From IMG/VR virus record IMGVR_UViG_3300037484_000394, positions 1 through 48,272 of that record: DNA of 48,272 nt; one strand, given 5' to 3'. The stretch is from a virus. Lineage: Duplodnaviria > Caudoviricetes. A program made the translations under genes and the position numbers. Shown here piece by piece: positions 914 through 46,070 of this stretch. The stretch's first letter is position 1; each line of letters begins with the position of its first letter. Below the pieces are notes generated by a model. The model saw nothing but the letters and a program-made list of their open reading frames with translations, was not told the origin of the DNA and did no database searches.

Positions 914-941
914 GGGACACATAATTTACATTATGTGTTGA
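914..941. other. dif-like site GGGACACATAA-TTTACA-TTATGTGTTGA
   Basis: 11-6-11 architecture with CATAA-N6-TTATG core, as in Xer dif sites. Confidence 0.7.
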
Positions 942-950
942 GACTGGGGA

Positions 951-979
951 TTGACAAGGGGCATGGATGGTGCTATGAT
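951..979 (+). promoter_or_regulatory. sigma70-type promoter TTGACA-17-TATGAT
   Basis: Near-consensus -35 and -10 with a TG extension. Confidence 0.75.
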
Positions 980-986
980 TTTCTTA

Positions 987-1126
987 TCCCTGGAAGGATA
1001 CGCGTACAGCCTTTTTTTGTTGCTGGTCGCGTTCACAACTCACTTGTGGGCAAAGGCCCGCGATTGGCGAAAGGCTGCTCTATCCTTCCAGGGACTGATC
1101 GGCAATAACCAATCGCGGGCTTTTGC
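987..1126 (+). ncRNA. Candidate structured leader RNA with crossing or alternative helices
   Basis: 987-1000 pairs with 1081-1094 (14 bp); 1007-1014 with 1070-1077; 1050-1067 with 1109-1126. Confidence 0.45.
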
Positions 1127-1215
1127 ATTAACAGAGCGCCACCGGAGAGATGAGCCTCCCCGGTGGCAGCAGGCGGAGAGATCTGCCTGCAAGCTCCATT
1201 ATAGCATAAGGAGAG

Positions 1216-1443
1216 ATGAAAGTGGCTAAGTCAGGATCGAGCACACAGGTTCTTTTGGAGGCGGGGGGATTGTGGCCCACGCAGGAGCGCATGGGGCACA
1301 TTCCAACCGGCCGCGGCCAGGCCAAGTACCGTGAATATCTGGCACGGTGCATCGTGGAGGCGCTGGGGCACTTGACGATGGAGGATCTGGTGGCGGTGAT
1401 GTACACGGTGGGGAAGTTGGCGCTGGAAAGGGGGAAAGGATGA
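1216..1443 (+). CDS. Hypothetical protein (moron in the tail operon)
   Basis: AAGGAG RBS; has its own promoter upstream. Confidence 0.55.
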   Translation: MKVAKSGSSTQVLLEAGGLWPTQERMGHIPTGRGQAKYREYLARCIVEALGHLTMEDLVAVMYTVGKLALERGKG

Positions 1444-1485
1444 GATTGGTATTGGGGATTGGGTATTGGGGATTGGGTATCAGGT
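1444..1485. repeat. Heptamer tandem repeat (ATTGGGG/ATTGGGT)
   Basis: Seen directly; a related tract lies at 46574-46616. Confidence 0.7.
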
Positions 1486-1551
1486 CATAGAAAAACAGCT
1501 ATTCGGTGTGCCCGCGCCCATTGGCCCGGAAAGAATTGCAGAGTCTGCGCG

Positions 1552-1590
1552 AACGCGCTCGCTCGTTTGAGTGGGCGCGTTTTCGTTTTC
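1552..1590 (+). terminator. Intrinsic terminator-like hairpin preceded by a conserved leader motif
   Basis: AACGCGCTCGCTC-GTTT-GAGTGGGCGCGTT followed by a T-rich tract. Confidence 0.6.
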
Positions 1591-1606
1591 AGAAGGAGAT
1601 GAGGAA

Positions 1607-1903
1607 ATGGCAGAGATTCGGTTGCACCTTACGATCGAGCGCATCAATGCCTTGAGCGTTGGGGAGCGGATTACGTTCGAGGAACCCAGTGAAGCCAGCA
1701 CGCGAGCGCTGCGGGACATGCTTGCCAATTTCGTCATGGGAGACAATGGGGAATATATGACGAACAAGGCTGCGCGCCAGCTCTTGAATCGTCTGTCACC
1801 CGACGAGTTCATAGAGATAGGTCGCAGACTCTATACGCAATTTGGAGTCCTTGCGGTAAACCCTACGCCCGTCGCAGACTCTATGATGCAACCTGCTGCG
1901 TAG
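1607..1903 (+). CDS. Tail assembly chaperone (gpG-like)
   Basis: Lies between the tail tube and tape measure genes; slippery A-AAC-CCT at 1858-1864. Confidence 0.7.
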   Translation: MAEIRLHLTIERINALSVGERITFEEPSEASTRALRDMLANFVMGDNGEYMTNKAARQLLNRLSPDEFIEIGRRLYTQFGVLAVNPTPVADSMMQPAA

Positions 1904-2127
1904 GCAGGGGGCCGGACTGGCTGGAGTCGTTGCGCCAGGCGCAGGCGTGGGGTCGTCCTCCCTGGGAGATTCTAGGGCGGCCAGGATCATTTTATGAGCG
2001 CATGATTTGGCGCGTCCGGTGGATAGAGGCAGATCGGTTAGGACTGCTGGATAGCCGAATGATCCTCAGGCAACTGGTGCAAACCCCCGTCCCTAAAAAG
2101 GATTGGGGAGAGGCGTGGAGAGATTGA
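1861..2127 (+). CDS. Tail assembly chaperone extension (gpT-like, -1 frameshift product)
   Basis: The -1 frame is open from the slippery site to 2127 and contains WGRPPWEI. Confidence 0.65.
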   Translation, partial: PYARRRLYDATCCVGRGPDWLESLRQAQAWGRPPWEILGRPGSFYERMIWRVRWIEADRLGLLDSRMILRQLVQTPVPKKDWGEAWRD

Positions 2128-3809: not shown

Positions 3810-3837
3810 GAGACACATAAGGGGAATTATCGGACAG
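3810..3837 (-). other. dif-like site (minus strand CTGTCCGATAA-TTCCCC-TTATGTGTCTC)
   Basis: XerC-like and XerD-like arms around a 6-bp spacer. Confidence 0.75.
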
Positions 3838-5529: not shown

Positions 5530-5976
5530 ATGGACGCTGTTGATCGCATGATTTACGCACAAACGAACAAGGGGGCACGCATCGGGACGGCGCACGACAC
5601 GATCGGGGCGCTCAGAGGTGGGACGGGACTCGGGATCTGGTACGCGACTCAGGCACGCGCGTTAGGGTTTCCGTTCTCATTGCATCCCGATGGGGCTGTG
5701 AAAGCCGAGATCAATCATGGGCGCTGGCTAGCGCGTTGTCCGTTTTGCAGCGGAGCAGAGGAGGCCGATCCTGGGGAGCCAATCTTTTATTGCCTTTCCT
5801 GTGGTAACGCAGACAATGGGGGACACATAATGATGGTTATGTTCCCAGACGACCGGGACAAAATCGAGTCAGTGCTGCTGGCCCGGTTCAACATCGGCAC
5901 GCGCAATTGGACGCCGGGGGAATCGCTGCAGGACCTGGTGAAAGAGAATAAAGAGCATGGGCTGGACGACGCCTAG
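5530..5976 (+). CDS. Hypothetical protein with zinc-finger motif (CPFC...CLSC)
   Basis: RBS present; two CxxC pairs. Confidence 0.65.
   Translation: MDAVDRMIYAQTNKGARIGTAHDTIGALRGGTGLGIWYATQARALGFPFSLHPDGAVKAEINHGRWLARCPFCSGAEEADPGEPIFYCLSCGNADNGGHIMMVMFPDDRDKIESVLLARFNIGTRNWTPGESLQDLVKENKEHGLDDA
5820..5847. other. dif-like site inside a CDS: GGGACACATAA-TGATGG-TTATGTTCCCA
   Basis: Same consensus as the other copies. Confidence 0.6.
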
Positions 5977-8595: not shown

Positions 8596-8638
8596 GATTT
8601 TCTTTAAAGGCGCAAAGTTTTGCAACCTATTTGCAACC
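8596..8638 (+). repeat. 43-bp direct repeat, copy 1 (copy 2 at 18026-18068)
   Basis: Identical GATTTTCTTTAAAGGCGCAAAGTTTTGCAACCTATTTGCAACC. Confidence 0.9.
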
Positions 8639-9598: not shown

Positions 9599-9776
9599 GT
9601 GACCTCCGGTTCAAAATTGCCTGGACACATAATCCGAAATGCGGGTAAGATAATTGTCCAGAGTCTTTTTTTTGATGCCGAAGGGCAAAGCCGTGTGGGC
9701 AATGGTCGTGGATGAACGAGCCATTTCCCAACGGATGACCACATGGATAGGGAACCTGAGTAACCGTGTGGCGAAA

Positions 9777-9969: not shown

Positions 9970-9997
9970 GGGACACATAATCCTTATTATGAGACAT
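9970..9997 (-). other. dif-like site (minus strand ATGTCTCATAA-TAAGGA-TTATGTGTCCC)
   Basis: Matches the consensus. Confidence 0.75.
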
Positions 9998-11488: not shown

Positions 11489-11656
11489 CTACCCGATGAT
11501 GTGCATGGCGGGCATGGGAAAGTACCACACGCGGCTGCCGGAGCGCCAGCGCATGGAGAGCATGATGTTGCGCAGGATGTACAGATCCTCGATACATAGT
11601 TGCGCCAAGATGGCGGCGAATTCGGCCTCTCTTTCAGATACCCACTTTCTTCCCAC
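11489..11656 (-). CDS. Small hypothetical protein (55 aa, MGRKWVSEREAEF...)
   Basis: GTG start with AAGGA RBS; overlaps the repressor end; stop codon lies in a REP GTAG. Confidence 0.45.
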   Translation of the reverse strand: MGRKWVSEREAEFAAILAQLCIEDLYILRNIMLSMRWRSGSRVWYFPMPAMHIIG

Positions 11657-12017
11657 GCGATTCCTTCTTCCGACGCTCCAGCTTGAGGCGGGCCAATTGC
11701 AGCAATTCCTCTTGGTCGCTTACGCTCAAGTCTGGAACGATGTGGAGCATTTCATCTACGACGGCGCCGCGTTGGCGCTCCTCGGCAGACGTGGGCAATA
11801 GCTCCAGCCTTTTGAGTACGATTTCTGGGGGAAGATCTAACGCTTGGGAAATGGCTACTCCTGCGTCCCATCCGATGCCACGCTCACCACTGCGGGCTTT
11901 GCTGATGACTGAATGAGACAAACCTGCTTTTTTTGAAAGTTGACTATCAGTCAAATCTAAATCTTTCAGATGAGAATCGAGCCACGGGAAAAATGAGGAA
12001 GGTGTTTGTTTACTCAT
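11634..12017 (-). CDS. XRE-family HTH repressor (CI-like)
   Basis: LTDSQLSKKAGLSHSVISKARSG helix-turn-helix; divergent from the Cro-like gene. Confidence 0.85.
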   Translation of the reverse strand: MSKQTPSSFFPWLDSHLKDLDLTDSQLSKKAGLSHSVISKARSGERGIGWDAGVAISQALDLPPEIVLKRLELLPTSAEERQRGAVVDEMLHIVPDLSVSDQEELLQLARLKLERRKKESRGKKVGI

Positions 12018-12079
12018 AGATGTTCTAGTAGACAATTATGTCTCACTTGTCGGAGTCTTATGACTCTCAAAATTGCCTA

Positions 12080-13506: not shown

Positions 13507-14177
13507 ATAAAAAACGTGTTCTTGCATTGGTAGCCGGTCTGGCGGTGTTGATGGTTGAATGTGGCTGTCTGACTGTGATGGCTTTTGGGCCGGGAACAAC
13601 GGCGTTGAAGACATCGGCGCCGAGGGCAGCAGCATTGAGGACGGCAACGCCGAGGATAGTGGAGACGGACACTGTCACCCTGGTGACCATGGTTGTTGCT
13701 GCTAGAACTGCTACAGCACTCCCCACTGTTATCATTAGTGCGACGCCTATGCCAGTTGTTGTGGTGGTGACGGCGGCGCCGAGCACGGCAGCGTTGAAGA
13801 CGGTGACGCCGAGGGCAACGGCGACAATGATGAGAGTTGATGATCCGAGCAGCACGCCTTTGAGCACGATCTCTGCTCTTGGGCCAACGGCGGGACCAAC
13901 CACGATTCCGACGTGGACATGGACGCCGACCGCCATTCCAACATGGACGCCGACGATGACGTTTACTCCCATGCCGACGTGGACTATGACGCCAACACGA
14001 ACGCCGACACCAACGTGGACGCTGGTGCCAACTGCAACCCGGACACGCAGGCCAACGGTTACACGCCCGGCCCCGGCGACTTTGGCATGGCCGTGCCCGA
14101 CTTGTTCGCCTTTGACGACGCCATGCTCACCTTTGCCAACGCCGACGCCATTTCAATCGCCATTGGCGCTGCCATGA
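13503..14177 (+). CDS. Exported or membrane Pro/Thr-rich protein
   Basis: Signal/TM N-terminus and TPTWT repeats. Confidence 0.6.
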   Translation: MNKKRVLALVAGLAVLMVECGCLTVMAFGPGTTALKTSAPRAAALRTATPRIVETDTVTLVTMVVAARTATALPTVIISATPMPVVVVVTAAPSTAALKTVTPRATATMMRVDDPSSTPLSTISALGPTAGPTTIPTWTWTPTAIPTWTPTMTFTPMPTWTMTPTRTPTPTWTLVPTATRTRRPTVTRPAPATLAWPCPTCSPLTTPCSPLPTPTPFQSPLALP

Positions 14178-14527
14178 GCCATTGGTACAAGTTTGCGGAG
14201 GTTATGATGCCAGTGCAATATCTGGAAGAAGCGTTGAAGTTGGTCGAGCAACGGCGGGCAGAGTTGGAGGAGGATATTGAGTTGTTGACGGGGATCCCGG
14301 GGCAGGTGGAGGTTCATTTTCACGACACGATGAAGGATCCACACAAGTTGGCGCACGCAGCGGTCAGGATTGGATGGAAGATGCGGCGGGCATGGTCAGA
14401 TCGGAAGTTGGTGGTTGTAAGCCATCCGAACAGCAGGATGAGGATTTATCTGGGTTATCCCATGGGCAGGGCCGCCCCTATCGAGCAGACATGCGCTTGG
14501 GCAGAGCGCAAGCTGCGTTCACTGTGA
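14174..14527 (+). CDS. Hypothetical protein
   Basis: ATGA overlap with the upstream stop codon. Confidence 0.6.
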   Translation: MSHWYKFAEVMMPVQYLEEALKLVEQRRAELEEDIELLTGIPGQVEVHFHDTMKDPHKLAHAAVRIGWKMRRAWSDRKLVVVSHPNSRMRIYLGYPMGRAAPIEQTCAWAERKLRSL

Positions 14528-14577
14528 GCGGGCACAGAAGATAGGCGGCGGCCCTGAGTTCTTTTGAGGTAATCACC

Positions 14578-14646
14578 ATGTTATTCATAATCGCAGCGTT
14601 CGTCATTACGTTGGTCATTGCACTTTTGGTGGGCGTTGAAGCATAG
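14578..14646 (+). CDS. Possible 22-aa hydrophobic peptide (MLFIIAAFVITLVIALLVGVEA)
   Basis: GAGGT RBS; single TM segment. Confidence 0.3.
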   Translation: MLFIIAAFVITLVIALLVGVEA

Positions 14647-14651
14647 AACGC

Positions 14652-14695
14652 AGATTCTTCGGGCCTGACGCAGAGCGCAGGCCCTCAGAATGACA
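14652..14695 (+). repeat. REP-like family C (AGATTCTTCGGG...CCCTCAGAATGACA), 4 copies
   Basis: Other copies at 36473-36512, 38710-38749 and 46078-46122, all in the same orientation. Confidence 0.85.
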
Positions 14696-14702
14696 AAAAT
14701 TT

Positions 14703-15827
14703 ATGGACATCAACACGATCATCCCTAAACCGAATGATATAACCCTGCTAGGCGAGCAATCAGTTGCGGCACTGTTCCCTGGCGTTCGGGTGGAGGTGGG
14801 GGAATTCACGCCAACGCGCAGGCCGCCGACTCTGGACGACCTGGTGCACGCATGGGATTCTTCAAAGGCGGCGTGGCTGGCCAGCCACGAATCGGAGAAC
14901 ACGCGGAACACGTACAGCGCGGCGGTCGAGGCGTTCTTCAAGTGGAGCGCCAAGTACCCGTGGGCGGTGGGGCGCGTGGATGCGTTGGGGTGGAAGGAGC
15001 ACCTGGCGGAGATAGGGCAAAAGCCGGCGACGGTGAATTTGAAGCTGGCGGCGCTCAGCTCGTATTTTGAGTTTGCGGAGAACGATTACGCAGTGATGGA
15101 CGCAGAAGGGCGCGAGATCCCGCTGCACCACGACCCCCACGGCCAGGCGGCAGCAAACCCGTTCGGGCGGGTGAAGCGGATGCAGGTGAAGGAGACGAAC
15201 CGGCGCAAGCATTTGAACGGTGAGCAGGCGTTGGCGCTGTTGGATGCGGTGAACCAGAACACGCTTTCCGGGAAGCGGGACTTTGCGCTGATGCGGCTGA
15301 TGCTCTACACCGGTTATCGGAACACTGAGGCGAGGACGCTCAAGTGGGGCAACCTGGTGTTTGAGGCCGGCAAGGTGTTTCACTTTTGGGTGGGCAAGGG
15401 CGGCAAGGAGAACAAGGAACAGATCGCGCCGCCGGCGTGGGAGGCGGTCGAGGCTTATTTGCGTGCAGGCAGCCGCTGGGATACGATGCAACCGGATGAT
15501 TACATTTTTACGCCGCTGACGGATATGACACTGCGGCTGGGCAAGATCGCGCCGGAAGATTGGGATCGCAATCATCCGCTTTCGATCAAGGAAGTTGGTC
15601 GGATCGTGAAGCGGTATGCTAAACGCGCAGGGTTGAATGAGAAGGAGATCCACCCGCACACGCTGCGGCACAGCCTGGCGATGAATATGCGGGCGGTCGG
15701 GTTCAAGTTGGAAGAGGTGGCGGAGAAACTGCACCACTCGAACATCGAGACGACACGGATTTACGATCACCAGGATGGCAGCGATGACGTGACGTGGCAG
15801 ACGCTGCAAAGCAGGTTCAAGTGGTAA
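14703..15827 (+). CDS. Second tyrosine recombinase (Xer-like, with N-terminal core-binding domain)
   Basis: SENTRNTY, TGYRNTEA, GKGGK, HPHTLRHS, LHHS..TTRIY. Confidence 0.9.
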   Translation: MDINTIIPKPNDITLLGEQSVAALFPGVRVEVGEFTPTRRPPTLDDLVHAWDSSKAAWLASHESENTRNTYSAAVEAFFKWSAKYPWAVGRVDALGWKEHLAEIGQKPATVNLKLAALSSYFEFAENDYAVMDAEGREIPLHHDPHGQAAANPFGRVKRMQVKETNRRKHLNGEQALALLDAVNQNTLSGKRDFALMRLMLYTGYRNTEARTLKWGNLVFEAGKVFHFWVGKGGKENKEQIAPPAWEAVEAYLRAGSRWDTMQPDDYIFTPLTDMTLRLGKIAPEDWDRNHPLSIKEVGRIVKRYAKRAGLNEKEIHPHTLRHSLAMNMRAVGFKLEEVAEKLHHSNIETTRIYDHQDGSDDVTWQTLQSRFKW

Positions 15828-15917
15828 GCCCTTCGACAGGCTCAGGGCAAGCCCTCATCCCCCACCCCTGCCCCTCCCCCGCGTGACGCTTCGCGCGCGC
15901 AGGAGAGGGGAGAAAAT

Positions 15918-15945
15918 CGGGGACATAATTGGTCTTATGTGTTGA
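15918..15945 (+). other. dif-like site CGGGGACATAA-TTGGTC-TTATGTGTTGA
   Basis: Matches the consensus; just downstream of recombinase 2. Confidence 0.7.
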
Positions 15946-16015
15946 GGGGTGGTGTTGAGGTTGGTAAGGTGCGGGGTTGTTCAATAGATAAAGGGTAGCA
16001 CAAAACGGGGAGTTT

Positions 16016-16336
16016 GTGACAATGTTTGAGAATCTGGTGTGGAAATTGGTCTACCTGGCGCTGGTGTCGGCAGCGATCACCATTGAGCACAAGCGGTTTG
16101 CGCGGCTGTGGAAGCGTTACGAGCGTGCGCGTTGGACGATGGGGGTGGCGACGGTGCTTGGCCTGGCTGCTCCCCTGGCCATGGCTGGTTGGATGGATTG
16201 GGAGACGTGGTGCTGGTTGCTGGCTGGGTTCGGCATGGCCGGCGCGGTGACGACTCTGTTGTACCTGAATGAGGGGGCCAATGTCAACACCATTGCTCGA
16301 AGAGCCATCCGCAAGGCAGATCAGACTTCCAAATGA
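16016..16336 (+). CDS. Hypothetical membrane protein
   Basis: About 3 hydrophobic segments. Confidence 0.6.
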   Translation: MTMFENLVWKLVYLALVSAAITIEHKRFARLWKRYERARWTMGVATVLGLAAPLAMAGWMDWETWCWLLAGFGMAGAVTTLLYLNEGANVNTIARRAIRKADQTSK

Positions 16337-16550
16337 TGAATTGGATTTCCTGGAAGATCTGACGGCGTTGGCCGTTGGGATCATTCGGGATGTGAAGCAG
16401 CTTTCGTTTTGGATTGACGACCCGGACGAGTACGAGATCGGGATGAGTATCATGCACCAGGCGCTCAGGTTGAGGAGCCAGGTGATTGAGTGGAAGGCGA
16501 AACGGCGGGGGGAACGACCATCCGCAAGGAAAGAAAGGAAACCATCATGA
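16281..16550 (+). CDS. Hypothetical protein
   Basis: GAGGG RBS; ATGA overlap with the next gene. Confidence 0.55.
   Translation: MSTPLLEEPSARQIRLPNDELDFLEDLTALAVGIIRDVKQLSFWIDDPDEYEIGMSIMHQALRLRSQVIEWKAKRRGERPSARKERKPS
16452..16515 (+). repeat. 64-bp direct repeat (copy 2 at 17439-17502)
   Basis: Identical ATGCACCAGGCGCTC...GGCGGGGGGAAC on both sides of one gene. Confidence 0.9.
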
Positions 16551-17434
16551 AACAATGCTACATCGAAAAGGATTTCAACGCATCCAGCCTTTTGGTCATA
16601 AATCAGGCTAACGCTGTCTTGGAAGAATATCGCGCGATGGGGTACGTCTTGACCTTGCGCCAACTCTACTACCAACTCGTCGCGCGTGGTCACATCGAAA
16701 ACAATATGAAATCGTACAAACGGGTTGGCTCAATTGTCTCCGATGCGCGCCTGGCGGGACTGATTGACTGGAGCATGATCGAGGACAGAGGCCGCGAGGT
16801 AGTCACGCCGCCCCACTGGAACAGTCCCGCAGAAATCGTGGAGGCAGCAGCGCGCCAGTTCGCTATTGATAAGTGGGCCGACCAAACTTACCACGTCGAA
16901 GTGATGGTTGAGAAGCAGGCGCTTGAAGGCGTCTTGATTCCAGTGTGCAGAGAACTCGATATTGCCTTCACAGCCAACCGTGGCTATAGCTCGTCGTCTG
17001 CAATGCGCGAGGCCGGTCTTCGCATCATGCAGAAACTAGGCGACGGAAAAGAGGTTGCCATCTTTTACATGGGCGACCATGACCCATCGGGCATGGACAT
17101 GACGCGCGACGTGCGCGAGCGATTAGGACTGTTCGCGGAGACGACCGTTGTCAAGGTAGATCGCCTGGCGCTGAACTATGACCAGATTGAGGTGCTCAAC
17201 CCTCCGGAAAACCCGGCAAAGACCACAGATAGCCGGGCAGAGGCTTACATTGCAGAGTTTGGGGAAAGCTCATGGGAATTGGACGCCATTGAGCCGCGCG
17301 CCTTAGCCGACTTGGTGCGGCAAGCTACACTCGAGCTTCGCGATGAGAGACTTTGGAACAGAAATATCAAAGAGGAAGCGAGGATGAAAAAAGCGTTGAT
17401 GAACTTTGCGGCCACCTACGAGCAAGAGGACTAA
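16547..17434 (+). CDS. Topoisomerase VI-A/Spo11-like winged-helix plus Toprim protein
   Basis: TLRQLYY, VEKQAL, RGYSS, GDHDPSG and WELDA motifs. Confidence 0.8.
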   Translation: MKQCYIEKDFNASSLLVINQANAVLEEYRAMGYVLTLRQLYYQLVARGHIENNMKSYKRVGSIVSDARLAGLIDWSMIEDRGREVVTPPHWNSPAEIVEAAARQFAIDKWADQTYHVEVMVEKQALEGVLIPVCRELDIAFTANRGYSSSSAMREAGLRIMQKLGDGKEVAIFYMGDHDPSGMDMTRDVRERLGLFAETTVVKVDRLALNYDQIEVLNPPENPAKTTDSRAEAYIAEFGESSWELDAIEPRALADLVRQATLELRDERLWNRNIKEEARMKKALMNFAATYEQED

Positions 17435-17537
17435 CTTTATGCACCAGGCGCTCAGGTTGAGGAGCCAGGTGATTGAGTGGAAGGCGAAACGGCGGGGGGA
17501 ACAATCCCCAAAGAAGAGAAGAAAGGAAGATAGGGAG

Positions 17538-17942
17538 ATGAGCGAAAACACAAGCGACAAAATCGGTGTACCGGCGATTGTAGGCTTGTTTGGGCACAGT
17601 ACGATCGCCGGATATGTGTCGGCGGATACGATGTTCGGGGAATCCCTACTGCGGATTGATGTGCCGGCCACAAGCAAGCAGCCAGCGTTCACGCGGCACT
17701 ATGGGGTGAAGGCTGTGTATGAGATTGATTGGTGCAGCGAGGAGGTGATGGTGGCGGCGGCGGAACATGCGCAGGTGCGGCCGATCAATGTGTACGTGCC
17801 ATTGCTGGTGTCGAGAGAGGCGCATGAGCGCGCCTTGGCCGAGATGCGGGAATATATCGAGCAGTTGCGCAAGGGGTTGCCGGAGCCGGATCGGTTGGGG
17901 GATGAATCCGATGATGAGGATGACGACGAGGTGCCATTCTAG
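17538..17942 (+). CDS. Phage hypothetical protein (LFGH..IAG motif)
   Basis: RBS present; acidic tail ending EVPF. Confidence 0.65.
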   Translation: MSENTSDKIGVPAIVGLFGHSTIAGYVSADTMFGESLLRIDVPATSKQPAFTRHYGVKAVYEIDWCSEEVMVAAAEHAQVRPINVYVPLLVSREAHERALAEMREYIEQLRKGLPEPDRLGDESDDEDDDEVPF

Positions 17943-29567: not shown

Positions 29568-29595
29568 TGAACACATAATGTAGCTTGTGGGACAT
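29568..29595 (-). other. dif-like site (minus strand ATGTCCCACAA-GCTACA-TTATGTGTTCA)
   Basis: Matches the consensus; right border of the FtsK cassette. Confidence 0.7.
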
Positions 29596-30031: not shown

Positions 30032-30061
30032 TGGGAAGCCGCAAGGGGGTTCCCCTACGGG

Positions 30062-30235
30062 ACATATAATATAGTTTTCTTGGACAGACGGCATGTCAAG
30101 TGGCGTGCACAAATAGAGAGTAATGGACAAGTGAGATCTCTTGGTTATTATGATACTGCCGAAGAGGCTGCGAGGGCGTACAACGATGCCGCGACTAGAT
30201 ACCATGGTGAATTTGCCAAGCTCAATGATATGTGA
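30062..30235 (+). pseudogene. AP2-domain fragment (remnant of an HNH-AP2 endonuclease)
   Basis: KWRAQI...LGYYDTAEEAARAYNDAATRYHGEFAKLN; no ATG start. Confidence 0.7.
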
Positions 30236-32527: not shown

Positions 32528-32863
32528 ATGGGCAAGTACTTGGGGACGTGCATCTTGCTTCCGCAACGAACGATGTGGGAACGCTATGATTTCGCGTCCC
32601 ATTGTGTAGAGTTTTCGGCAGCACACGCCGCGACTTTGACGTTTAGTGCGGATGACGCGGCCCGGTATGACCGGATCATTTGCGTCAATCCCGGGTGGAT
32701 CGGGACGGGGTTGACTTTAGACTGGTTGCGCTCTCGCGGGTTTACGGGGGAATGGAATGTGATCGAGGTTACGACTGCCTGTGAGTTGTGGCTAAAGTTC
32801 TATAAAGAGGGCGTTCCCGGATGGTATTCCCCAAGGTGGATAGAAGCCAGGCGCGAAGCATAG
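32528..32863 (+). CDS. Hypothetical protein
   Basis: ORF within the operon. Confidence 0.55.
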   Translation: MGKYLGTCILLPQRTMWERYDFASHCVEFSAAHAATLTFSADDAARYDRIICVNPGWIGTGLTLDWLRSRGFTGEWNVIEVTTACELWLKFYKEGVPGWYSPRWIEARREA

Positions 32864-32884
32864 GTGCGTGGTTGCGAGGTCATC

Positions 32885-33532
32885 ATGGCAACTAGCAAGG
32901 ATATGTATCTCCGACAGTGTATTGCTTCAATTCGGGCGATGCTCGACGATATGGAGGCTGTGTTGGAGCAAAACGTGGTCGCTTCCGGTATTCCATGTTA
33001 CCCATGGTCGCAACGCGATCCACGATGGGGTGACGACTTGTTGGGGCTGGCGACGAATCGGAAATATACACTCGCTCAGTACGGGTGTCTTTTGACTGAC
33101 ATGGCCAGCGCGACCACCATGACACCGGGGGAGCTCAACAAGTGGCTTGCCGAGCGCAAGGCGTTTGCGGACAACGGCGAAGGCCAATTCAACAAGATCA
33201 TCCTGGACAGCTTTGTGCCGTTGGGATTCCGGCTGGGTAAGGATATGCTGTGTTTGAAGGTCGTGGCCCATATCCCAGAGGCTGCCAAATGCCTAGCGAC
33301 CGGCGGGATGATCATTGCCGGCGTAAGCCATAACGGCGTTACCGATAGTGTGCAACACTATGTGCGCGTGGTCGAGCTTACTCCCGATGGGAAAGACGCG
33401 ACGATCATGGACCCTCTGCGCAACCCTGGTGATGAGATCGTCCATGGGGTTGCACAATACGCAAACAGGTGGGGCAGCGATCCGGCGCATGTCTTTTTGC
33501 GCGTCATGTTCTATGAAGCTGTAAAGTCGTGA
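32885..33532 (+). CDS. Peptidase C39-like cysteine peptidase (putative endolysin)
   Basis: SQRDPRW...YGC...HYV...MDP (Cys-His-Asp). Confidence 0.75.
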   Translation: MATSKDMYLRQCIASIRAMLDDMEAVLEQNVVASGIPCYPWSQRDPRWGDDLLGLATNRKYTLAQYGCLLTDMASATTMTPGELNKWLAERKAFADNGEGQFNKIILDSFVPLGFRLGKDMLCLKVVAHIPEAAKCLATGGMIIAGVSHNGVTDSVQHYVRVVELTPDGKDATIMDPLRNPGDEIVHGVAQYANRWGSDPAHVFLRVMFYEAVKS

Positions 33533-33563
33533 TGCTGACTATGTTGGGAGGAGGTGATAAGCC

Positions 33564-33701
33564 ATGCTGGGGAGCGTTCCGTTGAAACTTTTGTTCGTCG
33601 TATTGGCGCTTGTATGTTTTGCGCTCGCATTTTTCAATGTGCCTCGTTATAACTGGATGTGCGGTGGGTTCTTTTTCACGTTGCTGGCGTTCATGGTGTG
33701 A
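33564..33701 (+). CDS. Small 2-TM membrane protein (45 aa)
   Basis: GGAGGTG RBS; MLGSVPLKLLFVVLALVCFALAFF... Confidence 0.6.
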   Translation: MLGSVPLKLLFVVLALVCFALAFFNVPRYNWMCGGFFFTLLAFMV

Positions 33702-33753
33702 TGCCCCACCCCTGGCCCCTCCCCTGGCGAGTACGCCAGGAGAGGGGAATGAT

Positions 33754-33781
33754 GTGGGAGATAACGGGGATTATGTGTCGA
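33754..33781 (+). other. dif-like site GTGGGAGATAA-CGGGGA-TTATGTGTCGA
   Basis: Matches the consensus; lies between the lysis and packaging genes. Confidence 0.65.
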
Positions 33782-33981
33782 GGACTTTGTGTTCGGGTGC
33801 ATGAATGAGTCGGGCACAGACACAACATGAGGCGAGATGGAGAAACCTGGCGCGTGAGGCTCAGCGTTGGGGAATCGTGACGAAGGCGAGTCGAGCCTGG
33901 GTTCGTTTTTGTCGGAGGCAGGCCAATCGTGCGGCGCGCAGGTTTGGGAAGGGGGCGTGCCGGTGGTAGGGGATTTCTTTA

Positions 33982-34716
33982 ATGGCGCAAGTGCGTGATA
34001 CCGGATTGCAATCTAGCGATGAATTGAGTGCGAAGTTGGCCAAACTCAGCCCGGCACAGGCGGCAGCGGTGCCGAGGATTGTGGCGGCGGAGTTGGCGGG
34101 AAGCTCGGTAGAGTCGCTATTCAATGGGCCGCACAAGATTTGCAGCCGGTCCACGTATTATCGGCAGCGGGGATGGGTGCACAAGGCCGAGTTCCAGGCG
34201 GTGCTGGAGCAAGCCCGCCGCGAGATCCGGAATCAGAATCTGTTGGGGATGGTGAACGATGCGATCTCGGAGCTGAAGGCGACGACGCCGTTGGCAGCGC
34301 GGGATTTGAGGCGGCAGATCGTGGGCGACCAGGCAGCGATAGATGCGCTCTTGGCGGTCGTACTGGAGCGGAAAAAGTCAGTGGAGGAACGCAATGCGGC
34401 CGTGCGTAGCTTGGCCGTGATCGCGACGCCGCAGGCAACGGATGCGTTGCTGGCTTTATTGAGTGATGCCAACAAGGAAGTCCGCCTGGTGGTGATCGAG
34501 GCTTTGGGGATTTCGGCGGCGGGCACGAATGTTCAGAGGCGATTGGCGGATATTGCAGTGTTGGATCGCGCGGACAAGTTGACGGCGAGCAAGGTGAAAA
34601 CACAGGAGGAACTTGACGCGGAGATTGCTGCGGAGATAGCCAGGGTAAGCGGCTCGATCTCAAACTCAAGTCCAAGTGATGTGATGGAGCCGGCTAAAGC
34701 CTTGACTCCGGGGTGA
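33982..34716 (+). CDS. Terminase small subunit candidate with HEAT-like repeat
   Basis: Directly upstream of terL; CSRSTYY..W HTH-like segment. Confidence 0.6.
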   Translation: MAQVRDTGLQSSDELSAKLAKLSPAQAAAVPRIVAAELAGSSVESLFNGPHKICSRSTYYRQRGWVHKAEFQAVLEQARREIRNQNLLGMVNDAISELKATTPLAARDLRRQIVGDQAAIDALLAVVLERKKSVEERNAAVRSLAVIATPQATDALLALLSDANKEVRLVVIEALGISAAGTNVQRRLADIAVLDRADKLTASKVKTQEELDAEIAAEIARVSGSISNSSPSDVMEPAKALTPG

Positions 34717-34723
34717 TTAGGAT

Positions 34724-36472
34724 ATGTTGTCTCCCGTTTCGACTCAAGGGCAGGATTGGAGGAGCTGGACACCAGAGGCCAAGTTGGCGCTGCTGGGCAG
34801 GCTGCGTGAGATGCCGACGCCTAATGAGGTGCAGTGGGCGCGGTATCAATCTGCTCCGGTGGCGTTCGCGCGAGACGTGTTGGGCGATGGGAATTTGACG
34901 GATGGACAAGTGGCTGTGTTGAATGCCGTGCGCGACAACAAGGTGACGATCGTGCAATCAGCGAACGCGGTGGGCAAGACGTTTGCCGCGGCGGATGTGG
35001 CATTGTGGTTTTTGCGTGTGTTCTCCCCGAGCAAGGTGATCACGGCAGCTGCGCCGCCGGAAGACAATTTGAAGCGGCTGCTGTGGGGAGAGGTCGAGAC
35101 CAAGTTGTTGAAAAAGCCCGACATTTTCAAGGACGCGGTGCCGGGCATTCTCAATATTCGGATGACGCCCGAATGGTGGATGGCGGGCGTGGCGATCCCG
35201 ATGAGCGGAACGCCAGCGGAACGCGAGGCGAAATTCAGCGGGAAACATTCGCCGCACTTGCTGTTCATCGTGGACGAGGCAGACGCAGTACCAGACGAGG
35301 TGTATAAGGGCATCGAAGCGTGCATGAGCGGCGGGCACGTGCGGCTGCTGTGTATGTTCAATCCGCGGTCGGCGAGCGGGTCAGTGTATCGGATGATCAA
35401 GGCGGGGGCGCAGGTGATTGTGCTGGATGCGTTTGATCATCCTAACGTGGTGAGTGGGCGCGAGGAGATCCCTGGCGCGGTGAGTCGTGCGATCACGGTG
35501 GAACGGGTCAACAAATGGAGCCGGCCTGAGACGGAGGATGAAGCGGGGGCGAGAGGGGCGACGCACGCATCGCCCCTACGAGGGAATGATTCGGAATGGT
35601 TCACGGTTCCAGCGGTGTTGGATGGCGCGACGGTGCGATTGGACGATGGGACGTTGACGCCGGCGTTGATCGGCGGGCAGCGGAGGCAGGTGACGAACCC
35701 GGCGTTGAGTTATATGACGCTGGCTCGATTTCCAGGCCAGGCCGAGAGCCAGCTCATCAGCCGCTCGTGGGTGGAAGCGGCGCAGCAACGATGGCTGGTG
35801 TGGAGGGCGCAACATGGTGATACGCCGCCCGTGGGTGTGCGCCCAATTCATGGGCAGGACGTGGCCGAGTTCGGAGGGGACAGCAACGTGGCGTGTTTCC
35901 GTTATGGTGGATGGGTGGCGTCGTTCGAGGCATGGAACGGGGTGGACGTGTTGGTAACGGGCGACACGGCGGCGGCACGAGCGCAAGAGCGAAACGCACG
36001 AGAGAGCTTTGTGGACGCGACGGGGATTGGCGCTGGTGTGGCGCCGCAGATGCAGCGTTGGTGGGCAATGCACCCAAGGCAACTACAAGGAGGGCAACCA
36101 CAAGAAGGGCAACCACAAGAAGGGCAACCACAAGGGTTGCCCCTACAAGAGGCTTTTGATTGTCGGGCGATTCCGGTGCACGTGGCCGGCGCGCCAACAG
36201 TAAAGCCCGATGAGGCCGAGTTCGGGTTGCTGCGAGATCAATTGTGGTGGGCTTGCAGGGAATGGCTTCGTGCTGACCCGGGGGCGATGCTGCCCCCAGA
36301 CGAGTTTTTGGCCGACGAGTTGTGCGCGCCGCGTTACCAGGTGCGCCAAGGCAAGTTAAAGATCTCGGACAAGGATACGTTGCGAACGATTTTGCGCCGG
36401 TCGCCGGACAGGGCGGATGCACTGTGTTTGACGTTTGCGCCTACCGAGACGGGGGCTTTGGTGTTGTGGTAG
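34724..36472 (+). CDS. terL: Terminase large subunit
   Basis: SANAVGKT, IVDEAD, NP, GQDVA, VDATGIG and SPDRADA motifs. Confidence 0.93.
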   Translation: MLSPVSTQGQDWRSWTPEAKLALLGRLREMPTPNEVQWARYQSAPVAFARDVLGDGNLTDGQVAVLNAVRDNKVTIVQSANAVGKTFAAADVALWFLRVFSPSKVITAAAPPEDNLKRLLWGEVETKLLKKPDIFKDAVPGILNIRMTPEWWMAGVAIPMSGTPAEREAKFSGKHSPHLLFIVDEADAVPDEVYKGIEACMSGGHVRLLCMFNPRSASGSVYRMIKAGAQVIVLDAFDHPNVVSGREEIPGAVSRAITVERVNKWSRPETEDEAGARGATHASPLRGNDSEWFTVPAVLDGATVRLDDGTLTPALIGGQRRQVTNPALSYMTLARFPGQAESQLISRSWVEAAQQRWLVWRAQHGDTPPVGVRPIHGQDVAEFGGDSNVACFRYGGWVASFEAWNGVDVLVTGDTAAARAQERNARESFVDATGIGAGVAPQMQRWWAMHPRQLQGGQPQEGQPQEGQPQGLPLQEAFDCRAIPVHVAGAPTVKPDEAEFGLLRDQLWWACREWLRADPGAMLPPDEFLADELCAPRYQVRQGKLKISDKDTLRTILRRSPDRADALCLTFAPTETGALVLW

Positions 36473-36518
36473 AGATTCTTCGGGCGATGAGTACATTGCC
36501 CTCAGAATGACAAGCGAG

Positions 36519-36562
36519 TTTCTTGCGCAGGAAATTAGACTGTGAATTTCGTGCGCACGAAA
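36519..36562. repeat. Two 16-bp palindromes, 28-bp period
   Basis: Copies start at 36519 and 36547. Confidence 0.85.
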
Positions 36563-36573
36563 TGCAGGAATAC

Positions 36574-38709
36574 ATGGCAGCATTAGAGACATACGTTTAC
36601 GACGGGGCCAAGGTCACTGACATCGGCAAGCTCATTTTTGGGAATGATGGCGGCGCGGCAGTCTCGGTGATGGACGCTTTCAAGGCGGTGCCGTGGCTGT
36701 ACCGTGCGATCCTTTTGCGCGCGGGGGCCGTGGCAGGTATGCCGTTTTCACTCATGCGCGGCAAAGAGGATGTGACTTCGAATGAGGAATACAAACGGCT
36801 GACGGGGAAGTTGAAGCGGCAACTATGGCTGACAGAGGCATGTCTGATCACCGGGGGCGCGTCATATCTCATTTTGAATACGAACCTGGTAGGAAAGGAA
36901 ATCACGCCGCGTTGGGTTTTGCCCAGCACGATTGAGCCAGTCACGGACGAGGTGAAGGGATTGACCGGGTTCATCCGAAAGGTTGGGAGCAAAGACATCC
37001 CGATCCCCTTGGATCGCATCGTTTATTTCTGGATGCCCTCGCTTGAGACGGAGGTTGGGCCGGGGACATGCGACGCGGATGTGGCGCTGAATGCGGCGGG
37101 CGTGCTGCTCAACGCCGACCGGATGATCGAGAATTATTTCAAACGCGGCGCGATCAAGATCACGTTGCTGACCGTGGAAGGCAATCCACCTAAAGAAGAA
37201 CTCGACAGGTTGGAACATTGGTGGAAGCGGATGATCAGCGGTATCAGGAAAGCCTACGAATCCATAGCGATTCGGGCGAGCATCAAGCCGGTCATCATTG
37301 GCAGCGACTTGAAGGAGACGGACGCGGGGCCGTTGACGGACAAGAAGCGGGAGGATATCGCCGTGGCTATCGGCGTTCCGCAAGCGTTGCTGTTCCAATC
37401 GTCGGCTTATGCGACGGCGCGGCACGAGGATCAATTGATCTTCATCGAGCGGACGGTGCTGCCGGAATGCGACGTGATCGCAGAGGCGCTGAACGAGCAA
37501 TTGTTCAATCGAGAGGGCCTCGTCCTTGCGTTTCATCCTGATAAGTTGGCGGTGATGCAAGCCGCGCAACTGGCAAAGAGCCAGGCGGTTTTTCAATTGA
37601 CGGGGCAGCCGATTTTGACGGTGGACGAGGGACGCGATTTGATTGGACGCGAGCCGATGGCATTGACGCAAAGCGCAACGGCGAACGCAGCACAGGAGGA
37701 ATTGAGGACGTGGCAACGGTTTGCGCTGAGGCGCTTTCGCGAGGGCAAGGCGGAAAAGGCAGCGGAGTTCAAGTGCAATTTTGTTCCTATGGGTAGAGCG
37801 GCGCAGATCGCGGAGGCATTGAAGGCGGCTCGGACGGTTGAGGAGGTGGAGCAGGTGTTTGGAGAGACCCCTGCCCTCATCCCCGACCCTTCCCCCAAGT
37901 ATGGGGGAAGGGAGGAAGAGGAGACTCATAATCTGTCTTATATGTCGAGCGTAAAATCTATTGGGTATGGATCGGATGGGCACAAAAGTTTGATGGGGCG
38001 CTTTGACCGACGGGCGAATAAGTATGAGAAGCAATTATCGCGTGTGGTGAAGGCTCTTTTCAACCAGCAGCAAGAGGCTGTATTGGCGGGGTTGCGCAAA
38101 CGGGCAACGCGCAGCGTGGGCGTGAACGACGAGCCGTTCGATGTGGATGAATGGCGCAAGGAATTTGAAAAGAGCGTGGCCCCCATTCTTGAAAACATTG
38201 TTGAGACTGTCGGGCAAAATACGCTGGACGATTATGCTATTGAGATGGCGTTCAACGTGGACGAACCGGCGGTGGCGCATTTTTTGAGCCGCAGGGCGCA
38301 ACGATTTGCAAAGCGAGTGAACGAGACGACGTGGGAAGAGTTGAAGGCGTCGCTTCGGAAAGGAATCGAGGGGGGAGAAAACATCACGCAGCTCGAGGCG
38401 CGGGTGCTGGACGTGATGGCGGGACGTATTCGTAGCACACCGGAGACGATTGTGAGGACGGAAGTGATCGGTGCTGCGAACGGCGGGACGCTGGAGGCGT
38501 GGAAGCAATCGGGCGTGGTGGCGACGAAGACGTGGATGGCAACGTTGGACAGCCGGACGCGGGATAGCCATGTAGATGCACACGGGCAGACGGTGCCCAT
38601 CGAGGCTGATTTTGTGGTGGGCGGCGCGAGGGGACCGGCGCCTGGGCAGTTGGGGGTAGCAGAGGAAGATATAAACTGCAGGTGCACCATGAAGGCGAAT
38701 TTAGAATAG
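36574..38709 (+). CDS. Portal protein fused to a MuF/SPP1 gp7-like minor head domain
   Basis: HK97-type portal motifs (NYFKRGA, IAVAIGVP); C-terminal IVRTE, KTW...D.RTRDSH...HGQ, INCRC. Confidence 0.88.
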   Translation: MAALETYVYDGAKVTDIGKLIFGNDGGAAVSVMDAFKAVPWLYRAILLRAGAVAGMPFSLMRGKEDVTSNEEYKRLTGKLKRQLWLTEACLITGGASYLILNTNLVGKEITPRWVLPSTIEPVTDEVKGLTGFIRKVGSKDIPIPLDRIVYFWMPSLETEVGPGTCDADVALNAAGVLLNADRMIENYFKRGAIKITLLTVEGNPPKEELDRLEHWWKRMISGIRKAYESIAIRASIKPVIIGSDLKETDAGPLTDKKREDIAVAIGVPQALLFQSSAYATARHEDQLIFIERTVLPECDVIAEALNEQLFNREGLVLAFHPDKLAVMQAAQLAKSQAVFQLTGQPILTVDEGRDLIGREPMALTQSATANAAQEELRTWQRFALRRFREGKAEKAAEFKCNFVPMGRAAQIAEALKAARTVEEVEQVFGETPALIPDPSPKYGGREEEETHNLSYMSSVKSIGYGSDGHKSLMGRFDRRANKYEKQLSRVVKALFNQQQEAVLAGLRKRATRSVGVNDEPFDVDEWRKEFEKSVAPILENIVETVGQNTLDDYAIEMAFNVDEPAVAHFLSRRAQRFAKRVNETTWEELKASLRKGIEGGENITQLEARVLDVMAGRIRSTPETIVRTEVIGAANGGTLEAWKQSGVVATKTWMATLDSRTRDSHVDAHGQTVPIEADFVVGGARGPAPGQLGVAEEDINCRCTMKANLE
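37921..37948. other. dif-like site inside the portal-MuF linker: GAGACTCATAA-TCTGTC-TTATATGTCGA
   Basis: Degenerate consensus following a family A hairpin. Confidence 0.55.
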
Positions 38710-42015: not shown

Positions 42016-42043
42016 GGGACACATAATCGGCGTTATAGGACAG
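42016..42043 (-). other. dif-like site (minus strand CTGTCCTATAA-CGCCGA-TTATGTGTCCC)
   Basis: Matches the consensus. Confidence 0.75.
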
Positions 42044-44350: not shown

Positions 44351-44375
44351 AAAAAGCCGCGCTTGTGGGCGCGGC
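44351..44375 (-). terminator. Terminator for the minus-strand cassette
   Basis: GCCGCGC/GCGCGGC stem with T5 on the minus strand. Confidence 0.6.
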
Positions 44376-44399
44376 GGTGAACCTTACAAACTGAATCAG

Positions 44400-44759
44400 C
44401 TACGAATCTTTGTAGTCGTCTGCGAGTTCGTCGGACTCGGCTTGCTCAAGTTGTGACTTGAGCGCGGCAGTCCGGTCGAGCGCAGCAGCCACACCCGACA
44501 AAATTTGCTCAAGCGCTTCATAGTCGCTTTGATCGAGCGACTTGAGCAGGCGGCGTATGCGCTTCGCGGTTGCTGTCATCGCGCCGGATGTGTCTTGCTC
44601 GATCATCAGTGTGATAACTTCCGCGCTGGCGAGTTGGTGCAACAGGTCGGCCACGCCGCGAAGTCCCATGCCGTCAGCGATGTCTTTCAGCGTCTTGATC
44701 TCGGCGGGATAAAGACGCGCAGAGAATGTCGGCGCATCGGACGATGAGAACTTGGACAT
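44400..44759 (-). CDS. Hypothetical protein, possible ribbon-helix-helix N-terminus
   Basis: GAGGT RBS; TFSARLYPAEIKTLKDIA. Confidence 0.6.
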   Translation of the reverse strand: MSKFSSSDAPTFSARLYPAEIKTLKDIADGMGLRGVADLLHQLASAEVITLMIEQDTSGAMTATAKRIRRLLKSLDQSDYEALEQILSGVAAALDRTAALKSQLEQAESDELADDYKDS

Positions 44760-44829
44760 TGTTTACCTCATAAGAAATCTCGGTCAGCGGAGGATTCTCC
44801 AGCTTGACCGATGGCGGGTTGGTACGATT

Positions 44830-45000
44830 TTAGTTGGCGTCTTTGTCGTTTGGATCGCGCACTATCAGTGTGCCCGGAAAGTCCGGGTATCCGCACTGAT
44901 TGCATGATGCGTTGTCCCAAAAATCTGTTTCGCGCACAGACGGCGGCGACGAAACGGTGATGTCATCACTACCACAGTTCGGACAAACGTGCTTGCTCAT
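44830..45000 (-). CDS. Small zinc-ribbon protein (56 aa)
   Basis: MSKHVCPNCGS...CNQCGY; GGGGTG RBS. Confidence 0.6.
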   Translation of the reverse strand: MSKHVCPNCGSDDITVSSPPSVRETDFWDNASCNQCGYPDFPGTLIVRDPNDKDAN

Positions 45001-45058
45001 GATTCACCCCTTTTTCGATGTTTGGGGGCAGGTGGCTGTCCCCGCCCTGGCGGAGCGG

Positions 45059-45259
45059 TTATGCGGTCAAGTTTTCAACGATGATGCGCTCGGCGGTAGC
45101 AGCGGTCTTGCACTCGACCTCTTCGCGGTTATCGCAGACGGTGAAAGTCCCGTCAGAGTTTTTGTACAGAACCGTTGTATCTGCGATTGGCTCAGGATTC
45201 CCTACCGTCACAACCTTGATTGCATCTTGCGCTAACTTGGTGGCCTTGCTCTTCGTCAT
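45059..45259 (-). CDS. Hypothetical protein (MTKSKATKLAQ...)
   Basis: AAAGGA RBS downstream of the promoter. Confidence 0.6.
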   Translation of the reverse strand: MTKSKATKLAQDAIKVVTVGNPEPIADTTVLYKNSDGTFTVCDNREEVECKTAATAERIIVENLTA

Positions 45260-45292
45260 TTTTCGTTTCCTTTCTTTTTCTTTGATGACATC

Positions 45293-45321
45293 AGTATAGC
45301 ACAATGTATATACATTGTCAA
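45293..45321 (-). promoter_or_regulatory. Promoter TTGACA-17-TATACT overlapping an 18-bp palindrome ACAATGTATATACATTGT
   Basis: Seen directly; the core TGTATATACA is repeated at 45351. Confidence 0.8.
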
Positions 45322-45408
45322 GAGACTAGCCTGACATTTACATGACTTATTGTATATACATAACAAAAAATCGTAGCTGATTCAGGTGCAAAATAACAAG
45401 GATTACTG

Positions 45409-45939
45409 ATGTTGAGTTATAGATTCGAGGGGCTGAAGGAGTTGATCAAGGCGACCGATCCGGTGTTGCTGGTCGAGCCACTGCGCAAGTTTTTCAAATC
45501 TGCGACGGTGGTGGTGCAGGGCGAGGCGCGGCATTATGCACCCTCGGATACGGGGCATCTACGGAACATGATTGTGACCGAGGTTGACGCTGGGCGGCCG
45601 CCGATCTGGGGCAAAGGGGGTGTGCTGAAGGCGCAGGAAGGAACGCCACTCTGGTTCAAGGCGCGTGCGATGGAGTACGGCACGGGCAGTCAGGGGGATC
45701 CGGAGGTGAGCCACAAGGCAGGGCACTGGCCGCCTGGCGAGGCGCTGGCTGTGTGGGGCAAGCGACACGGCGGGATCAGCGGGTACGCGGTGGCGGCGGC
45801 CATCGGGAAGCGCGGTGGGTTGAAGGGACGCAAGTATTTGCGGATTGGGTTCGCGCTGAGCCTGGATAGGATCAAGAATTTGCTGCGCCAGGTGCCGGTG
45901 GACGTGGTGAAGGAATGGGCAAGGCGGGTGAGGGGATAG
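45409..45939 (+). CDS. HK97 gp10-like tail/neck protein
   Basis: APSDTGHLRN, ARAMEYGT, GRKYLR motifs. Confidence 0.8.
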   Translation: MLSYRFEGLKELIKATDPVLLVEPLRKFFKSATVVVQGEARHYAPSDTGHLRNMIVTEVDAGRPPIWGKGGVLKAQEGTPLWFKARAMEYGTGSQGDPEVSHKAGHWPPGEALAVWGKRHGGISGYAVAAAIGKRGGLKGRKYLRIGFALSLDRIKNLLRQVPVDVVKEWARRVRG

Positions 45940-46042
45940 GACCCCACCCCCGGCCCCTCCCATGATGGGTACATCAGGAGAGGGGAGATGAGACCAACCT
46001 TCATCCCCGGGCCTTCTCCCAAGGATGGGGGAAGGGAGGAAG

Positions 46043-46070
46043 AGGGGAGATAACCCGCATTATGTTACCC
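46043..46070 (+). other. dif-like site AGGGGAGATAA-CCCGCA-TTATGTTACCC
   Basis: Right arm TTATGTTA closely matches the canonical XerD arm. Confidence 0.65.

Follow-up and report, generated by a model that had tools for sequence, protein, structure and literature searches.

Why should a single phage genome hold 13 sites of the kind used by site-specific recombinases? The window, that is, the entire 48,272 bp of IMG/VR record IMGVR_UViG_3300037484_000394 (direct terminal repeats; CheckV 100%), ends in a 127-nt terminal repeat, giving a circular temperate phage genome of 48,145 bp that encodes terminase, portal, MuF, capsid, tail, primase, ParM, FtsK, an XRE/Cro pair and two tyrosine recombinases, Int1 and Int2. 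The host is probably a member of the Anaerolineae, because Anaerolineae or other Chloroflexota were the source of most of the 80 top-ranking genomic relatives of Int1. A preliminary description had read the sites, which resemble the dif targets of XerC/XerD, as a Xer-driven system for acquiring or exchanging gene modules. We lean towards a different explanation, namely that they are targets of Int2 which let a terminally redundant, probably headful-packaged linear genome circularise wherever its ends fall.

An array of 28-bp sites

All 12 sites listed in the preliminary description, each consisting of two 11-bp arms around a 6-bp spacer, were found where it had placed them, and a thirteenth, at 19403, had been overlooked. 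They lie at 914-941 (spacer TTTACA), 3810-3837 (GGGGAA), 5820-5847 (TGATGG), 9970-9997 (TCCTTA), 15918-15945 (TTGGTC), 19403-19430 (TAAGTC), 22860-22887 (GACTAG), 26247-26274 (TGGCGG), 29568-29595 (TGTAGC), 33754-33781 (CGGGGA), 37921-37948 (TCTGTC), 42016-42043 (TCGGCG) and 46043-46070 (CCCGCA), and the spacers of all 13 were distinct, as had been said of the 12. The arm ACACATAA/TTATGTGT was carried by 10 of the 12 listed sites and the second arm pattern by six, again as described. The core ATAA-N6-TTAT occurred 12 times in the window and, on average, 0.1 times (maximum 1) in 100 dinucleotide shuffles, so that the motif is not as common in shuffled sequence; with any other spacer length between 0 and 12 the ATAA/TTAT pair was found only 0-2 times. 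When scored with a leave-one-out position weight matrix, the window sites reached 14.0-33.0 bits, against best scores of 6.2-11.4 bits in five shuffles. The resemblance to tyrosine-recombinase sites thus held. A search of IMG/VR for the exact site pattern of the window returned a single match, unrelated and AT-rich.

The sites were evenly spaced, with a coefficient of variation of 0.24 compared with 0.86-0.90 under random or gene-border placement (p=0.0002). Most of them had been assigned to module borders, and the blocks said to be bracketed by them were correctly placed (a methylase, ParM and a small open reading frame (ORF) between 22860 and 26247; two membrane genes and FtsK between 26247 and 29568). 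Site 3810 follows a hairpin resembling repetitive extragenic palindromes (REP) and has tape-measure genes on one side and tail genes on the other, and site 33754 precedes terS. However, three sites are inside reading frames: 5820 in a Zn-finger-like tail-region ORF (5530-5976), 19403 in a variable loop of the primase gene, whose length is equal in the related record G439, and 37921 at the portal/MuF junction. Compared with its site-less homologues in three relatives (G428, G434 and G415), site 5820 differed by substitutions only, with no indel; therefore, sites can arise in place and need not be the scars of cassettes. An integron-like cassette array was also considered and rejected, since the sites tile core genes, sit inside genes and have mixed orientation.

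The 7-bp-spacer variant (30059-30087; 18.0 bits) and the half site at 9622 that had been reported both exist. The role of the former is uncertain; the latter is one of two tandem half-sites (9622-9653, plus strand) located just upstream of int1 and also kept in the relative L041. A degenerate copy with a 5-bp spacer (12020-12046, minus strand; 13.8 bits) had been missed and would divide a gap of 5,948 bp. At least about 15 GC-rich REP-like hairpins, nearly all in the same orientation, are distributed from 834 to 46036, and at least six of the 13 sites begin 2-9 bp beyond one of them (9 bp for site 914). The same adjacency was seen in the relative G417, and hairpin ends may be the seeds of new sites.

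Distribution of the array in related phages

We searched 63 of 79 related IMG/VR records, picked through Int1, Int2 or the terminase large subunit (TerL); nine of the 63 were analysed minus 0.4-5 kb. Detection was carried out in two rounds, with a strict detector and a relaxed de novo pass, and thresholds were set across both. The strict detector overlooked arrays with a GCTAA core, and the relaxed pass gave six more. Arrays were present in 24 of the 63 relatives, which together with the window makes 25 arrays and 344 sites, with 6-19 sites per genome; four control spacer lengths gave 0-1 matches in total. Viral loci showed enrichment of the N6 core (189 occurrences vs 95-128 for the other spacings), whereas the surroundings of Int1 relatives in genomic records did not (107 vs 91-121). 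No protein family was common to all array records among the families compared.

Each phage had arms of its own, spacers of 6 or 7 bp were found, and many arrays were near-symmetric. No spacer was repeated within any of the 25 arrays (0 observed vs 3.0 expected, p=0.06), and pairs of spacers with at most one mismatch were depleted (27 observed vs 43.5 simulated, p=0.008). We agree with the earlier suggestion that distinct spacers would block self-deletion. Site orientation was mixed within genomes, which is compatible with cyclisation, as this allows mixed orientation. Seventeen of the 19 arrays tested were evenly spaced (p<0.005 against both uniform and gene-border nulls). For the eight records that were complete or nearly so (34-65 kb), the largest circular gap corresponded to 8.2-12.6% of the genome, and the mean gap rose with genome length (rho=0.71, p=0.047).

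In G472, the same arms enclose a 6-bp spacer at seven sites and a 7-bp spacer at seven others, perhaps because the array is in transition. A separate repeated dyad in G432 (14000-22908) has nearly constant centres, unlike the unique-spacer arrays, and is probably an operator. Phage B83, Salinibacter phage B2_17 and, over its first 50 kb, phiAsp2 had no comparable array, and genome-tiling site arrays were not described in the literature searched, mainly open-access papers.

Recombinases and their probable sites

Both recombinases had been called Xer-type; both are indeed tyrosine recombinases, but they do not form a XerC/XerD pair, given XerC/XerD scores of 157/153 bits for Int1 and 103/96 bits for Int2 against cut-offs of 330/335. 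Int2 (P0002; 14703-15827, plus strand) is a Cre/XerA/XerH-like protein of 374 aa. It has the intact R-K-H-R-H-Y set (R206, K232, H319, R322, H345, Y354) and the core-binding and catalytic fold of a recombinase that would act singly. Among solved structures, Int2 matched XerA, XerD, XerH, IntI4 and Cre best, the first three in both sequence and fold and Cre weakly (E ~3e-5); its structure model had a predicted local distance difference test (pLDDT) score of 83.5. No phage isolate with a close Int2 was found, the best having 25-29% identity.

Site 15918 begins 90 bp past the int2 stop codon, and in 14 of the 21 non-array records bearing Int2 a site, mostly palindromic, was located within 900 bp downstream of int2, whereas only one of 18 records bearing Int1 alone had a site near int1 (p=0.0002). 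Moreover, arms covaried with Int2 (Mantel r=0.41, p=0.002, 19 records; 0.45 when partialled on Int1) and not with Int1 (r=-0.06, 22 records), suggesting that Int2 is the likely enzyme acting on the array sites. In G423 an int2 match was found in two pieces (883-1842), and no cognate site was found beside it.

Int1 (P0001; 8672-9598, minus strand), of 308 aa, belongs to a tRNA-targeting family of tyrosine integrases. Many of its relatives begin 80-300 bp beyond a tRNA gene, and the segment 9777-9820 (minus strand), the core of its phage attachment site (attP), shares 43 of 44 positions with the 3' half of the tRNA-Val(GAC) gene found in Leptolinea sp. HRD-7. Judging from these sequences, Int1 is therefore the tRNA-Val integrase of the phage with its own attP. 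The 600 bp upstream of the int1 frame contain a site in 18 of the 22 array records bearing Int1; in the window this is site 9970, at about 370 bp. Int1 was rejected as the actor on the sites, and is probably not the recombinase of the array, on account of its tRNA attP, the missing covariation with the arms and the Int1-only phages without a nearby site.

The solitary palindrome beside int2 in those 14 records resembles a dimer-resolution module, and the window encodes ParM and FtsK, so the sites might serve sister copies after replication, through faster dimer resolution, concatemer processing or the unlinking of a circular, ParM-partitioned genome. FtsK was detected in 13 of 25 array records and in two of 39 non-array records. 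Dimer resolution, however, needs one site and predicts neither the even spacing nor the split by terminase described below, and four complete array genomes have no FtsK; we consider this purpose improbable. The FtsK/SpoIIIE-family ATPase of the window (28034-29485, plus strand) had been proposed to activate recombination through its gamma domain. The ATPase is present, but the gamma match (27.6 bits) is below the Pfam cut-off of 30.6, and FtsK was missing from 12 of the 25 array records, including the four complete ones. FtsK thus seems to be associated with arrays and dispensable for them. Octamers of the E. coli FtsK-orienting type (KOPS) had no telling co-orientation with the sites (9 vs 21).

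Could the sites instead be targets of the host XerC/XerD, activated by the phage FtsK, as in the pdif sites of plasmids? The 11-6-11 layout does match dif as given in part of PMC5357621, XerD was above the NCBIfam cut-off in 24 of 61 Anaerolineae genomes, six array records had no detected Int2, and some sites have two distinguishable arms. On the other hand, the arms vary from phage to phage, the spacer switches between 6 and 7 bp, and many arrays are near-symmetric. The comparison with Chloroflexi dif that the preliminary description called for did not yield the phage arms as a host dif: the window arm pattern occurred once each in six of 401 host genomes (nine control matches), a second arm family in two of 201 and a symmetric pattern in one of 27, all at the chance level. 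A reading of the sites as a host repeat was likewise rejected, its matches being at the chance level. None of 688 phage arms ended like the candidate host D-arm pattern searched for, a result that weakens this explanation. When 27 Anaerolineae genomes with XerD were scanned for a D-arm-like pattern, no left arm was conserved next to it and no dif was recognised. A TTATGTCAA-type motif that recurs in Anaerolineae genomes (L399-L428), slightly more often than in the control (43 vs 33), has variable left flanks and is not a conserved dif; the Chloroflexi covered by the dif predictions of Kono 2011 are, in the portion of that source available, Dehalococcoides only (PMC3025954). Host-driven recombination therefore appears quite improbable.

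Operators had been the weaker alternative of the preliminary description, and we judge likewise. Cluster A mycobacteriophages are known to carry repressor sites throughout their genomes; according to part of PMC9283540, these stoperators are, like the sites described here, numerous, mostly intergenic and phage-specific. In our records XRE distance correlates with arm distance, and the degenerate copy at 12020-12046 is at the start of the XRE repressor of the window (11634-12017, minus strand). In contrast, no array site was within 600 bp of any XRE-like start in the 19 array records having one. Records G413 and G418 share arms and spacers, as G469 and G472 do, despite unrelated repressors (23/88 and 21/92 identical residues), while the window and G417, whose XRE and Cro are 64% and 79% identical, differ in arms, spacer length and Int2 (85/288). 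Thus the sites are neither at the repressor promoter nor, save for that Mantel correlation, do they track repressor identity. Stoperators are also asymmetric 13-mers bound by repressor and oriented with transcription (same source, in part), unlike our dyads with variable centres, which stay unchanged when the repressor is replaced. Binding by XRE, Cro or another DNA-binding protein is the least probable of the explanations considered here.

Association with the terminase

The terminase large subunit of the window (34724-36472, plus strand) is of the phrog_2 type and not of the phrog_9 type that accompanies HNH. We take phrog_9 with HNH to indicate cohesive ends (cos) and the other families (phrog_2, phrog_38 and phrog_979) to indicate headful packaging. 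Among records having both Int2 and a terminase, arrays were found in 16 of 19 with a non-cos TerL and in none of 14 of the cos type (p=1e-6); for non-cos records without Int2 the proportion was four of 19, and for cos-type records overall 0 of 16. HNH was present in none of the 25 array records vs 18 of 39 non-array records, so that the array phages combine non-cos terminase families with the lack of an HNH helper.

Cos-type phages with Int2 mostly retain a single palindromic site beside it. One of them, G470, has one perfect palindrome that matches the array consensus of G469 and G472, and its Int2 is 76% identical to that of G472. On the Int2 tree, which included the first 14 Int2-positive arrays, the array label was scattered, and on the TerL tree it was clustered (seven changes, with one of 500 shuffles as low); therefore, the array follows the packaging type, and the records are not independent. 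Taken together, the even spacing, the construction of a site within a gene and the association with terminase type point to a genome-tiling function rather than to cassette capture.

Signs of recombination between related genomes

In two pairs of related records the spacers of orthologous sites were almost unchanged, with 73 of 78 positions identical in G413/G418 and 75 of 78 in G428/G434 (13 hand-paired sites each), compared with 69-70% at fourfold-degenerate positions, which suggests recombination between genomes. The main purpose of the array might thus be exchange, with Int2 trading stretches of DNA among co-infecting phages or prophages at sites whose spacers match, for cassette exchange or the rescue of damaged genomes. 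When related genomes were aligned, one pair of four agreed with the Xer-driven module exchange put forward earlier: in G413/G418, 8 of 20 and 5 of 18 breakpoints were within 80 bp of a site (p<=0.0004; p=0.0004 for the 8 of 20), and unrelated tail or receptor-binding modules (G413 13671-16829; G418 32614-36018) had replaced one another exactly between the same two spacers, in swapped order. This swapped order is what heteroduplex exchange would leave, and it is possibly a trace of exchange independent of homology. In the other three pairs (G428/G434, G416/G420 and G406/G407) breakpoints were not enriched at sites.

Exchange is also suggested at site 37921, because the homology between the window and the relative L002 ends at a hairpin about 55 bp before it and another MuF gene follows in L002. 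In the window, portal and MuF form one reading frame (36523-38709) joined via a REP hairpin and site 37921, while in L002 they are separate genes and its MuF is unrelated to that of the window. Against exchange as a purpose, L002 is about 80% identical in the head genes and yet its sites are placed differently and have 7-bp spacers; moreover, such a purpose leaves unexplained the absence of arrays from all 16 cos-type records, the sites inside genes and the scaling of gaps with genome length. We hold it to be unlikely as the main purpose, module exchange at the sites being probably a secondary side effect.

Additional sequence elements

A topoisomerase-like ORF (16490-17434), whose product shares 87% identity with a protein of G417, is flanked by a perfect 64-bp direct repeat (16452-16515 and 17439-17502), which suggests that it was inserted recently. 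Among short contigs of three public runs, no recombination joints were found in spacers, and a 15911-18032 joint fits a repeat. A 43-bp sequence is identical at 8596-8638, after int1, and at 18026-18068, before the replication genes, and occurs in diverged form at 33971-34013, before terS. Tandem TTTCGTGCGCANGAAA-type palindromes form three clusters (21892-21993, 26156-26201 and 36517-36562) that are possibly replication-origin or partition sites. The C5 methyltransferase (23870-24534) has several internal repeats of 33-37 aa in its variable region. Finally, inverted repeats of 23 bp (91%; 44391-44413 and 45363-45385), about 950 bp apart, bracket small ORFs amid the head-tail genes, possibly a small mobile element.

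Discussion

The closure of circularly permuted phage genomes is usually credited to RecA or to phage annealing proteins. If the array phages package by the headful, the part of the genome repeated at the ends would vary from virion to virion, and with gaps of no more than about 8-13% of the genome this part would nearly always include one site twice, with identical spacers. Int2, as a single recombinase binding both arms in the manner of Cre or XerA, would be made after injection and join both copies into a unit circle without RecA, whereas the differing spacers would bar efficient recombination between different sites and hence deletion of the genome. A redundancy of 10% would include a site for 95-100% of starting points, vs 67-86% under random placement. 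The segment between two sites could also be swapped with a relative that has the same spacers, be it a resident prophage or a co-infecting phage, which would produce module exchanges. Genomes with cos ends close by annealing and would need one site at most, for dimer resolution.

Several observations weigh against circularisation by Int2. Headful packaging of the array phages is inferred from the terminase family, and B83, the closest isolate in which such packaging is verified (PMC6669507, in part), matches at 32% over 31% of TerL. Because the records are kin, were selected through Int1, Int2 or TerL, and carry an array label that clusters on the TerL tree, the Fisher p-values imply more independence than there is. 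Three Int2-positive non-cos records (G426, G442 and G473) have a single site, and 15 non-cos records have neither Int2 nor array, so that the system is not essential for such phages. A redundancy of 4% would cover merely 44-69% of starts, and one of 4-6% would cover 44-92%. RecT, ERF, Rad52 and AAA_24 were all absent above cut-off from the 25 array records, in line with closure by Int2, but this lack of annealing proteins is not significant (0/25 vs 5/39 non-array records). Cyclisation alone needs no conservation of orthologous spacers, which was 94-96%, compared with 69-70% at fourfold-degenerate sites and 76-87% in outer arms. As for the enzyme, the XRE repressor also covaries with the arms (r=0.54, 13 records; 0.46 when partialled on Int2, p=0.007, 11 records), and the correlation of Int2 with the arms falls to 0.26 (p=0.09) when partialled on XRE. 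The arms of the window and G412 are similar despite Int2 identity of 36%, and the palindrome next to int2 in G427 is unlike the G427 array. No Int2 was detected in six array records, every one of them linear or a provirus (CheckV 26-100%), and two of these, G419 and G420, end where G416 carries int2.

Circularisation of the genome through the array would act most like the Cre/loxP cyclisation of phage P1. According to parts of the sources cited, P1 DNA enters the cell as a linear molecule that either RecA or Cre-lox converts to a circle (PMC3973344), the capacity of the P1 head is about 112% of the genome (PMC10999674), Cre is used by merely a subset of particles (PMC10028697), loxP is one site of 13-8-13 layout (PMC8116776), and a headful genome closes when its terminal repeats, which vary from virion to virion, recombine (PMC11769102). 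What the two systems have in common is a single phage tyrosine recombinase with a site next to its gene, arms inverted about a spacer, and a terminally redundant genome in need of circularisation, a redundancy that is presumed in our case. Unlike P1, which has one loxP and most of whose particles depend on host recombination, the array phages are tiled by 6-19 sites with differing spacers, of 11-6/7-11 size, and Int2 is no orthologue of Cre. In appearance the array is closer to Xer/dif, including the single-recombinase XerA, XerS and XerH systems, with which it shares the 28-bp 11-6-11 layout (PMC5357621, in part) and the best matches of Int2 (XerA, XerD and XerH); it differs in having many sites per genome, phage-specific arms, 6- or 7-bp spacers, an enzyme below the Xer cut-offs and no requirement for FtsK. 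As with the pdif sites of Acinetobacter, a mobile element carries several dif-like sites whose spacers differ, and modules have been exchanged in at least one genome pair, but pdif, in the parts of PMC9771954 consulted, uses host XerC/D and flanks accessory plasmid genes, whereas here core genes are tiled evenly, some with a site inside them, and the array goes with a phage recombinase. The array is thus outside XerC/D-pdif by its enzyme and outside Cre/lox by orthology and site size.

We see an even chance that Anaerolineae phages have extended the loxP strategy of P1, with one recombinase and 6-19 orthogonal sites by which every headful would be circularised without host recombination, and with a network of cassette exchange among relatives as a further outcome. 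As part of genome tiling, sites would be rebuilt by point mutation when specificity changes, and their spacing would be fitted to the terminal redundancy. If true, this would be a third, purely site-specific way of closing circularly permuted phage genomes, visible in the sequence, and the spacing of sites would predict headful redundancy from sequence alone. The 25 arrays would represent many natural Cre-like recombinase specificities, with 344 spacers coexisting in genomes, of use in multi-site genome engineering, and the array would offer a mechanism for phage mosaicism at defined borders.

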